In this document: positions 1,931-58,465 of the stretch, piece by piece | Layout of the letters: every line of letters begins with the position of its first letter | Position numbering within the stretch: position 1 is the stretch's first letter | Position numbers and translations under genes: made by a program | From: Octopus vulgaris | Taxonomy: Eukaryota | Direction of reading: 5' to 3' | NCBI GenBank assembly: GCA_951406725.2 | Contig: OX597830.1 | Span: 37,820,001 to 37,884,000 of the forward strand | Length of the DNA: 64,000 nucleotides | The notes under the pieces: model-generated | Database searches by the model: none | Told to the model about the DNA's origin: nothing | Seen by the model: only the letters and a program-made list of their open reading frames with translations

Positions 1931-2085
1931 ATTGCTGTATTACGGTACGGTCATTTTTTGGCAAAATTAACACACGCCCTATATATCTTCTTCTTTAGTC
2001 GTTCGTTACTGTTCTTATTTAATTAATTTAACTCATGTTCATTGTCCGGAAATATTTCGTCACGCATCTGTGCCCTCTACATTGA
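1931..2085 (-). mobile_element. Degenerate Penelope-like pseudo-LTR fragment related to the 33.1 kb element
   Basis: Minus strand reads ggcac-agatgc-gtgac-GAAA and ends atatatagggcgtgtgtt...aaatgaccgtaccgtaatacagcaatat, similar to 33195-33257; abuts (TA)n. Confidence 0.5.
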
Positions 2086-4893
2086 AATTTTTCGTGTGTG
2101 TTCATCAACGCTGCTATTAATTTGGGTTACCATTCCTGAAGTGTGAGATGCTTACAGTCCCTAGTTTCTACTTAGCGGTCGCCTATCTGCGTGATCGCTA
2201 GGGTCGCCGTTGGTTAACTTCGCTAATCGGATTAGAACCGGTGCATACAACATGAAATGCCTTTATCGCAGCAATTAATTCCTGTAGGACATCAGCAACT
2301 GCACTTTTCGTCTGTTGTCCATTAAAAGATATCAGCGGAGAACGATAGCCTTACAAGAATACGAATTAGATATATTCGACAAATATTCTTCATTAAACTG
2401 TTAGAGAAAGTTTTCTTAATTTAATCCTCGTTGTCTTGAAAAATGATCTATCCAGTATCCGTTGGATTATGCTTTTCTGGTGCACGCTACAGTTGGAATA
2501 ACGTTAGTCACAGATTACGTTGACTGAAGAGAATCCACGGCAAAATAGTACCATCGGAACATAATTTAATGAAATATATCTCTACTACAATATCAACAGT
2601 CTCGTTCTTTCAAATAAATCCCTCTTGAAATAATTTACAGTGATATTCTGCCAATTATTAGCGATAATGCTAAAAATGATAGAGAGAAGGCGGATAAGAA
2701 GGGACTACAAAAACTCATTTCTGATTCTACAAACTTATAACGACAAAATAAAACCTCACATAGTCACACATTTCATATTATATTGTTGGTTTAATTCCTC
2801 GTCGAATGCAGTTACTTTGAGAATTTTGACGCAAACGTTTAAATGTCACGTAATTTACAAGACACTCTCTTCCCTCAATTTTATCTGTTTTCATACAACC
2901 ATATTCATTTTCGCCCGTTCCGTTTTTGTTTTCTATTATTACTCTGTTTCTGTTTTGTTAAACTCTTCTCTTTAGCACAGATAACACTTTGGCAATAATA
3001 TTTTGTTTTCTAAAATAATATCTTATTCTCTATATTCAATTTCATGAGTTTTATCCAATAAACCTATCGTTACATTTGATAATGAGTTCATTAGTCCGTT
3101 TTATTAATTAACCTATTTACTGTTTACTAAACACTGAGGTCACCGGGCTTTGTGTTTTCGGTTTCTTTAGTTGTTTAAAATTAATATATATTCTATACTG
3201 TATTTATCTTTACCATTTCTTTATCACCATTGAATCGGTAAGATGGAATATCTCGAGTGCGTAGTTATCATTGTATTTATATAACTACCATACAATATAT
3301 TCAGACGTCATTTCCCCTATATTATGTCTTCAAATAATAATTTCGGTTTGATTCTTTACAATTTCATTGAAATTCATTTTTATCTCTAATATTGGCTCTG
3401 TCTCTAATAGGAAATTTTAGCAAATAATTGACTACACACTATTTCTTTTTTTCAAAGTTCTTTTTAAAATAAATCCTTTCGTTTTGTATGGCACACATAA
3501 TCCACTTCCTTTTGGTTTTTTTTTCCTTCAATTTTCGTGCAACGATAACAGATGTCACATACCTTTATTTTTTCTTATCTGAAAACTTTTTATACACTCA
3601 ATTCATTATTTCCATTTCAATGTCTAATGGCTTTAAAATTTTCTTCTCTCCTTGGAATCATCGATAATTGATAAGATTGCGTTTAATACATTCTATGTAT
3701 TTTTGCCATATGTCTTCTTTCATACTCTAAGACGAATGAAATAAACTGTCATATTCCAAAAATAAATATATGCTTTCGAAATACTAAAATACATATTTAT
3801 ATGCAGATTGCTAAACTATAAATAAAAATTTTAGTAAGTCTCGAGAAAAAATATTGAATTTAAGAATCAAGTATGGTATTAAATAAATTCGAATAAACAT
3901 ACTTTATTTGCACTAATATTATTAGTTAGGGAATGCACCCGTTTTCATTAACAAACAATACGGTTATAAATGTTGTTTCACCTCATTTATATTCTATGTA
4001 ATCAAACATGCACTTTTAGTAACGCAGCTTTCTGTGGTCATCTCACATAAATTTCAGGTTGTGTACATTAGTTAATATGGGTATATGACATGTTGCATTT
4101 TTTGCTAAATTACGTTGGTGTCGTTTGAAGATACTCAAATTTATCTATCCCAAAATGATGGAAGGTAGATGCCACCCTGTTTGGATTTAAAGGTAAAGAA
4201 ACGGATTAAATATAAGAATGCTATTTTACGACGCTCCAATGATTCTGTCATCCCACCACCTTAACTGTAATGATGATGAAGATAAGGGGAGTCTTGCTCT
4301 TATATTGTATTACTTCCTTTTCTTTTTGCTGTTCCTCTTTTGATACTTTCCGCAAAATCTTTTTCACTCTGATGGCCATTGTAACACGAACATAGAAACT
4401 GACACTACGAGAATATGAATTTTGGCTACCTTGCCGCTGGAACCTATGGCTGAATATCTTTCTATTTTAACGTACTATACTCGAAACTTCCACTAATCAG
4501 ACTATTTAGCAATATTTACTCGAACATGTTCATTACCCTCACTATCACATTAATTGCTTCCCTTTTTACCCATACTCTATGCAACAACTGCTGGAGATCA
4601 CCATTACAAACTCGACCATACCGTCCACAAGCGATTACATATTTTGCGTTATGTTCAACCCTCCCTATCAAATCCCCGATCTGGACCGCGGACGAAAGAT
4701 CTAATTTAAGGGTTTCTTGTTCATAGTTGTTTGATAATGTTTTCCGGTGACATTGCACCAATTATACAATTACAGTTTTTGTATTTCTGAAGTAAATATC
4801 AAGTAAGCGAATTTACTTCGCAGATTACATTTTATTGTTAATAACTGACGATATATATATATATATATATATATATATATATATATATATATA

Positions 4894-5228
4894 TTCGTTC
4901 TGAGTTCAAATTCCGCCGAGGTCGACTTTGCCTTTCATCCTTTCGGGGTCGATAAATTAAGTACTACTTACGCACTGGGGTCTATGTAATCGACTTTATC
5001 CGTTTGTCTGTCCTTATTTGTCCTCTCTGTGTTTAGCCCCTTGTGGGTAGTAGAGAAATAGGTATTTCGTCTGTATTTACGTTTCTAGTTTAAATTCTGC
5101 CGAGGTCAGCTGTGCCGTTCTTCATTTCGGAACCGAGAAATTAAGTATCAGTTGCATACTGGGGTCGATCTAATCGACTGGCTCCCTCCCCAAAAATTTC
5201 GGACCTTGTACCAGAGTAGGAAGGAATA
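4894..5228 (+). mobile_element. SINE family B, 5'-truncated, with duplicated core
   Basis: Core gagttcaaattccgccgaggtcgactttgcctttcatcctttcggggtcgataaattaagta occurs twice here and recurs at 17.9, 20.5, 28.4, 35.8, 40.2 and 41-42 kb. Confidence 0.85.
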
Positions 5229-58006: not shown

Positions 58007-58222
58007 GAGGGCATTTTATTAGCAATATTGCAACCAAAACGCAGAAATATATACATCACTAAAGTGATCGAGGACACTAATGTGCACCAGTATTGCTAAA
58101 TATAAGAGTTAAAACTACGCATACCAAGGAGAAACGCTTATCTTCATAACTGAACTGCTTGTCGTGGTTATGAATTATTTTATCTCTTATTACCTGCAAT
58201 ACTGGTGCAGAATTGTGCCCTC
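58007..58222. mobile_element. MITE-like fold-back element with GAG...CTC termini
   Basis: gagggca/tgccctc ends; internal inverted pairs tgcaccagtattgc/gcaatactggtgca, ataagag/ctcttat and ttcataac/gttatgaa; inserted in (TA)n. Confidence 0.6.
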
Positions 58223-58277
58223 ATATATATATATATATATATATATATATATATATATAGATATATATATATATATA

Positions 58278-58465
58278 TCTATGTAAATGTAATATGTGAC
58301 AAGTATTCGGTAGCTGTGATACAACTCCGAGTTTTGGATGTCGGGTTAGTAATCCACGCCGCCATATTTGCCCCATATTACATTTACAGATAAATTCCTC
58401 TATTTACATAATATCGAATCGACGTCTCATTCATTCTTTTGTTGTCTTACCATTTATATCAATAT
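58278..58465. mobile_element. Fold-back element of the 48.5 kb family
   Basis: Arms 58282-58296 and 58374-58388; the minus segment matches ~48538-48575 and the tail matches ~48580-48636. Confidence 0.65.

Follow-up and report, generated by a model that had tools for sequence, protein, structure and literature searches.

What kind of mobile element left the hammerhead ribozyme motifs scattered through this stretch of the Octopus vulgaris genome (64,000 nucleotides of contig OX597830.1, assembly GCA_951406725.2, positions 37,820,001 to 37,884,000; hereafter the window)? An earlier note had listed seven full and eight partial motifs and had proposed about six families of non-coding elements, forming a retrozyme system or one parasitic on Penelope-like retroelements (PLEs). 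Judged from their letters, most of the elements are probably PLE ends carrying minimal hammerheads, a picture already known in general terms and found here in a host with abundant PLEs. The part worth following is a highly repeated family, designated F, which is a probable PLE parasite resembling a short interspersed nuclear element (SINE); weaker hints come from copies whose 5′ ends fall at predicted ribozyme cuts and from a family with a variant letter at core position 6.

Hammerhead-like motifs are present within about 40 nt of all 15 positions that had been named. The one near 48520 had been assigned to the minus strand; the half hammerhead found there lies on the plus strand (48558-48571). 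A strict type-I descriptor (core with at most one mismatch, stems I to III, GAAA and UH) returned 9 matches in the window against a mean of 0.77 (maximum 2) in 30 local dinucleotide shuffles, which served as the chance baseline. The matches comprised five of the seven full sites (those at 55775 and 57943 on the minus strand were missed) and four low-scoring sites that had not been named. Stem III was palindromic in four (0.13 expected, shuffle maximum 1) and the core was exact in three (0.03 expected). A looser scan proved weakly specific, as it yielded 19 rows where 7.3 were expected. The exact CUGANGA core occurs at three full sites, all on the plus strand (14777, 33803 and 57494), and the type-I fold is complete at each of them; the remaining four carry a single core-letter change (A9C at 33097 and A6U at 37865 on the plus strand, A6C at 57943 and U4A at 55775 on the minus strand). 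All partial sites except one could be matched to another copy by BLAST or nhmmer (seven of eight), that at 10210 on the plus strand being assigned by eye alone. No hammerhead family appeared among the 150 of 158 Rfam matches listed at E≤1, and exact-pattern scans found no match in metagenome contigs, viral contigs or prokaryote genomes.

The window is microsatellite-rich, with 36% GC, and 7,052 of its 64,000 bases were masked by TRF before grouping by self-BLAST, nhmmer and alignments. About seven groups, A to G, were distinguished, with a combined length of about 2.8 kb (4.3% of the window). The existence of several distinct groups is thus upheld; that each is a non-coding unit is unproven for most of them, because the window holds neither a head-to-tail tandem nor a PLE open reading frame (ORF). 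Group A consists of four remnants, one of them recognised by eye, and group B of a copy termed B1, an inverted unit and a diverged copy, B2. C, D and two tail-only copies are mutually related, whereas E, F and G stand separately. The CUGANGA core with GAAA, NUH and stems I and II is present in copies of A, C and E and in the majority sequence of F; B and D have one core change each. C, D and F share all of three features: an extra base after A9, a G10.1-C11.1 pair and a palindromic, loopless CG stem III. E has the extra base and the palindrome with A-U at 10.1, A has a palindromic stem III, and in A, E and G this stem is 4 bp long. The minimal type-I fold said to be common to the families applies to C, D and F; the long stem II of E takes it out of the minimal class, and in G, of which a degenerate 3′ half is all that is seen, the hammerhead is unconfirmed. 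Similarly, the palindromic stem III holds for most groups, B being non-palindromic. The 5′ end of B1 is a perfect 26-bp palindrome (33032-33057), perhaps a fold-back junction.

The frequent inverted duplication of one end was readily confirmed. B (9340-9591), E, F and G each carry a second, inverted, 5′-truncated copy of their own 3′ end, identical at 64 of 64 positions in E, and the two A pairs face outward. E was also considered as a miniature inverted-repeat transposable element and rejected as such, being asymmetric, with an inverted arm that duplicates just one of its ends. B and G each have one short and one long 3′ end, which would represent the optional tail of PLEs. Thirteen of 19 ends adjoin (TA)3 or longer, compared with a background of 2.5%, an enrichment that is partly circular because the ends were placed by eye. 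The published signature of PLE insertion consists of inverted copies of the end, an optional tail and ends in (TA)n, and with the ribozyme architecture these traits give the PLE link good support. In vitro, the protein of an anole PLE can nick AT-rich DNA and extend it on both strands, and two internal start sites of its reverse transcriptase (RT) bound the tail (PMC11167929). By inference, such two-strand priming and dual start sites would account for the anatomy seen in the window. A PLE RT with its GIY-YIG nuclease would make copies of RNA 3′ ends: the protein would nick AT-rich DNA, mostly (TA)n; priming of cDNA at either of two points near the RNA 3′ end would leave a tail on some copies only; and priming on both strands, as would often occur, would leave behind the inverted, 5′-truncated second copy. 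With the hammerhead lying about 60-220 nt inside the 3′ end, nearly every remnant would keep all or half of it. The ribozyme itself would cut solely as a dimer or with protein help. A, B1, C, D and E would be truncated autonomous PLEs or deletion derivatives of them; C, D and E look like truncated longer elements since they have several runs of four or more T on the sense strand and no head. We consider it likely that the whole is best explained by PLE-made 3′-end copies, most groups being truncated PLEs and F a non-autonomous parasite.

Sequencing runs of four organisms contained at least 30% of the words of positions 55990-58460. Family F was compared with sequence reads by aligning contigs of four sequencing runs, including those referred to as X1, X4 and X14, to positions 55560-55861 at 80% likeness. 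A total of 10,873 contigs aligned in X1 and 11,775 in X4. Relative to the unique flank, depth in these two runs was about 12,000-28,000× over the hammerhead and 90,000-150,000× over the tail, values to be taken as orders of magnitude because summed contig depth is not a copy number. The high copy number claimed for the system is thus borne out for F, with a depth about 10^4 times that of the flank. The window copy bears 14 private differences in 139 bases. Four of them fall at structured positions (U4, 10.2, 10.4 and 1.3), and in X1 and X4 the majority, with 87-95% of the depth, reverts all four to the letters required by the fold; the chance of this is about (1/3)^4. In the majority sequence the core is canonical, stem II has 5 bp and stem I has 4-5 bp. 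Within the core, polymorphism is confined to N7 (21-23%); the stem III CG shows the decay of a CpG. The 3′ ends of F copies are scattered over 55672-55690 and run into unrelated flanks. A protein search with the translated body gave no candidate.

At its 5′ side, the F unit begins with a sequence resembling a type-2 promoter of RNA polymerase III (Pol III). A pattern built from the A- and B-box consensus of PMC8969392, in which any purine was allowed as the first letter of the B box, matched the F head alone in the window and matched nothing in 100 shuffles. ARAGORN did not call the head (no tRNA was found) and Rfam did not recognise it. The A box is taken to start at tRNA position 8, a placement that puts the predicted +1 of F at 56071. 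In X14, 13 contigs leave the F body through four ATT repeats and enter a consensus that resembles the 3′ end of the head (agreement 0.79). A related arrangement may exist in G: the spacer of its inverted unit resembles the F head, a likeness noticed after the fact, with a score reached in 47 of 20,000 shuffles and in 14 of 12,762 other window tiles. A degenerate 5S rRNA-like segment, which at 30.4 bits falls short of the gathering score of 38, lies immediately upstream of B2, a single case that may be no more than adjacency. The tail of F looks PLE-type, and F is probably a Pol III-headed, SINE-like non-autonomous element mobilised by a PLE, in which a tRNA-derived head would drive a short RNA ending in the hammerhead and tail. 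Of the families, F alone gains support as a non-coding one, with weak support in G and B2, whose units likewise have a Pol III-type head at one end; the remaining groups could equally well be 5′-truncated ends of autonomous PLEs.

The same could be said of every group, F included, if the tRNA-like and 5S-like heads were unrelated SINE or rRNA remnants lying alongside. Other tRNA-like heads do occur on the plus strand, away from the hammerheads, at 7885-7953, 52644-52698 and 54086-54140 (their B-box pattern differed from the one matching F alone); the 5S link concerns one copy, and the sequence upstream of B1 differs from that of B2; the T runs in C, D and E would stop Pol III. This alternative appears unlikely when the junctions are considered. 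The inverted copy of F joins exactly at the predicted +1, and the end copy of G joins 2 nt from the equivalent position of a similar A-like box. Moreover, the head-like loose end recurs in the 13 X14 contigs, and the only run of four T in the F unit is a private change missing from the majority. Keeping to the preferred reading of F as a SINE-like parasite, we tentatively extend it to a wider picture, which seems a realistic prospect short of an expectation: octopods may harbour SINE-like PLE parasites that join a tRNA-derived, perhaps also 5S-derived, head to the 3′ terminus of a PLE and its minimal hammerhead; these would be transcribed by Pol III and spread to at least 10^4 copies by the PLE enzyme, with the head captured by more than one hammerhead body, some copies starting at the ribozyme cut as a genomic record of cleavage in vivo, and one family having spread while carrying a non-canonical pyrimidine at position 6.

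The 5′ ends of several copies lie near predicted cuts. Both D-related tail-only copies start at about the cut position of D, the long-tail copy of G starts 1 nt inside the predicted 3′ product, the inverted copy of E starts 4 nt short of the cut, and a rare joint in F coincides with the predicted cut. Counted by eye, four of about nine 5′ ends are within 7 nt of a predicted cut and about five others lie elsewhere. These ends are among the weaker hints, here of cleavage; the same pattern could arise from TA microhomology or from stalling at a hairpin. A6 is missing from both D copies, a pyrimidine taking its place (U in one, C in the other), so that the D ancestor probably had one as well. A natural A6C hammerhead is described as slow (PMC3088659) and as favouring Mn2+ (PMC7151607).

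Ends at predicted cuts would also be expected if the elements were non-LTR (long terminal repeat) retrozymes, in which case they would be monomers released from tandem arrays that yield circular RNAs through two self-cleavages. Monomers are common in retrozyme families (bioRxiv 10.64898/2026.07.22.740005), and two joints in the F contigs could be read in this way: one in X4 links 55800 to 55703 with 8 letters between them (depth 1587) and might be a 106-bp tandem, and the joint at the predicted cut is seen in X1 and X4 (depth 66 and 147); both amount to a minute fraction of a depth close to 10^6. Masked self-BLAST of the window revealed no head-to-tail repeat of any group and no partial tandem forming a direct pseudo-LTR, and the copies end in PLE tails and inverted copies, not in unit-length circular permutations. 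We consider this origin improbable. Retrozyme was set aside as the main label owing to the lack of head-to-tail tandems, and in the published sense of tandem hammerhead units giving circular RNA the term does not describe what the window contains.

A number of observations count against the explanation by PLE-made copies and a SINE-like F. No PLE RT or GIY-YIG domain was found in the 363 window ORFs of at least 48 amino acids, so that the window supplies no partner element and no Penelope ORF sharing the tails; the Pfam matches above curated cut-offs came solely from a long interspersed nuclear element (LINE) with an apurinic/apyrimidinic (AP) endonuclease. The ends of F do not adjoin (TA)n, and the tails described as often running into (TA)n do so in other groups. 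In X1 and X4 the F loose-end consensus is mixed (agreement 0.61-0.62), which leaves the link to the head in one run. F is the sole family compared with reads. Polymorphic sites in F, the family in which core conservation and stem covariation were assessed, numbered 0 of 11 in the core and 10 of 95 in the flanks (P=0.32), so core conservation is not significantly higher, and no compensatory stem change reached 5% in the contig alignments. Hydra-1_Obim is an autonomous Octopus PLE that targets (TA)n, with its hammerhead about 100 nt from the end; this hammerhead matches no window family by eye, and five window motifs are missing from the supplement that describes it (PMC8557442).

Nine of ten monomer folds had |z|<2 relative to shuffles, E being the exception, a result expected of motifs that need a dimer; in silico homodimer pairing of the stem III regions gave -5.5 to -13.1 kcal/mol, which is a pairing energy and not an activity. 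The monomer folds, the P value in F and the core changes in four of the seven full copies would suit chance matches or inert fossils whose fold is free of selection. We find this hardly credible given the excess of strict matches over shuffles, the perfect fold of the F majority and the recurrence of one design with unrelated stems. Individual copies are probably inert; the source elements would not be.

Table 1. Coordinates (window positions) of the hammerhead-bearing groups and associated features
Feature	Position	Strand	Description
Family F unit	55682..56071	-	head of tRNA type followed by (AAT)n, body and minimal hammerhead (core 55775-55769, GAAA at 55747, cut predicted at 55740/55739); 3′ end of tail variable
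F head, Pol III type-2 promoter-like	56010..56064	-	A box exact, B box near consensus, with 33 nt between them; +1 predicted at 56071
Inverted 5′-truncated copy of F 3′ end	56072..56140	+	joined at predicted +1 of F head
Family A outward-facing pair	14140..14847	both	on -, 5′ half (14203); on +, complete hammerhead with core at 14777 and stem III an 8-nt palindrome, cut predicted after 14824
Family A remnants	9838..10240	both	3′ half on - (9874-9838); 5′ half on + (10210, by eye)
Family B copy 1 (B1)	33032..33312	+	palindrome of 26 bp at 5′ end; core with A9C (33097), stem II of 6 bp, stem III not palindromic; long tail reaching (TA)n
Family B inverted unit	9340..9591	both	short-tailed copy on - (9486-9340) back to back with long-tail end on + (9484-9591); overlap 50/50 identical
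B2, diverged B-related copy	1932..2100	-	3′ half of fold, then short tail reaching (TA)n
Degenerate full-length 5S rRNA-like segment	2149..2267	-	just upstream of B2, same strand; 30.4 bits
Family C	33725..33936	+	canonical minimal hammerhead (core 33803, predicted cut after 33829); pyrimidine-rich tail into (TA)n
Family D copy 1	37795..37991	+	U at core position 6
Family D copy 2	57818..57985	-	C at core position 6; 79% identity to copy 1 over 90 nt
D-related tail-only copy	36688..36781	+	begins at position of predicted cut of D
Second D-related tail-only copy	15099..15190	+	begins at about same position within element as first; ambiguous by at most 7 nt
Family E	57334..57627	+	core canonical (57494), stem II long, stem III an 8-nt palindrome; cut predicted after 57567; inverted copy 57334-57397; TA at both ends
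Family G inverted unit	58279..58461	both	on -, short-tailed copy (58345-58279) and head-like spacer (58371-58345); on +, long-tail end (58374-58461); TA at either end
Family G copy	48500..48632	+	16-bp hairpin, degenerate hammerhead 3′ half, tail into (TA)n

Other repeats were noted in the window. The interval from 55.7 to 58.5 kb is a dense cluster of tail-bearing insertions. A (TA)n-flanked unit at 58003-58223 has an imperfect inverted end copy (58070-58222), shows no recognisable hammerhead and is possibly a further PLE-type family; an unassigned segment between E and the second D copy (57640-57783) has a tail-like (TA)n end. Two near-perfect 45-nt palindromes (58631-58675 and 58723-58767) lie upstream of a decayed LINE-like stretch without Pfam match, which we take to be RTE-like, and a CUGAAGA with no GAAA after it lies on the minus strand at 58680, before the first of these hairpins. 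A frameshifted LINE with AP endonuclease and RT occupies about 49100-52200, and a 3′ fragment of it, 79% identical, is found at 33380-33690 between B1 and C; for the LINE protein at 50232-50978, the best named relatives belong to Argonauta hians, Octopus sinensis and O. bimaculoides (56-60% identity). Finally, two SINE-like families have no hammerhead match, the more abundant at 4896-5229, 17911-18048, 28365-28580, 35771-36175, 40142-40342 and 41255-41883, the second at 11843-12226, 15799-16164, 17243-17590 and 61233-61412.

Should F be a true SINE-like PLE parasite, it would reveal the least RNA that a PLE enzyme needs. Its thousands of natural variants would also bear on the role of the PLE hammerhead; the anole ribozyme, whose cleavage needs the protein, is dispensable for insertion in vitro, and no reads terminated at the cut (PMC11167929). 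Some of the many octopus SINEs left without a class, among which 893 recently active families are recorded (PMC13282606), could then be reclassified. The repeat annotation of Octopus vulgaris in the same paper assigns 6.83% to Penelope-like elements and 11.6% to SINEs, and the word ribozyme does not occur in the searched text and supplement. The literature searched, Repbase, Dfam and closed journals lying outside it, reported no hammerhead in octopus SINEs and no tRNA-headed, PLE-mobilised SINE.

Several hammerhead families per genome are the norm, with 16 in Acropora (PMC7229834), at least eight in Xenopus and at least six in Latimeria (PMC4209133, supplement). The window elements share with the minimal hammerheads of PLEs (Cervera and de la Pena 2014, PMC4209133) the core with an extra base after A9, the G10.1-C11.1 pair, the palindromic 15.2-16.2 and a short stem I, as well as the occurrence of several families per genome, mostly as single copies, with pairs on opposite strands separated by 100-700 bp. 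C, D and F conform to the minimal consensus given there, including the CG palindrome seen in Lottia; the position-6 pyrimidine of D is a variant missing from the part of that paper's alignment that was inspected, two of its supplement files hold no octopus entry, and the window families are without a linked ORF. With the Hydra-clade PLEs (Craig et al. 2021, PMC8557442) the elements have in common (TA)n targets, a hammerhead about 100 nt from the 3′ end, inverted 5′-truncated copies and, in A, E and G, a 4-bp stem III. Non-LTR retrozymes (PMC7229834; bioRxiv 10.64898/2026.07.22.740005) are likewise short and non-coding, with a type-I hammerhead and a presumed dependence on PLEs; they are defined by tandem units and circular RNA, whereas the window copies are dispersed single or inverted ends, F having a Pol III-type head. 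A counterpart of F in this last respect is provided by the SINE-like SMalpha and Sjalpha elements of schistosomes (PMC6765202, PMC8490949), which are repetitive and non-coding and in which a Pol III promoter is followed by a type-I hammerhead. Those are described as tandem units cut from multimers; F is dispersed, with a minimal loopless hammerhead and the inverted ends and tail of a PLE. The new part would be a Pol III-headed SINE that has a PLE, not a LINE, as its partner.

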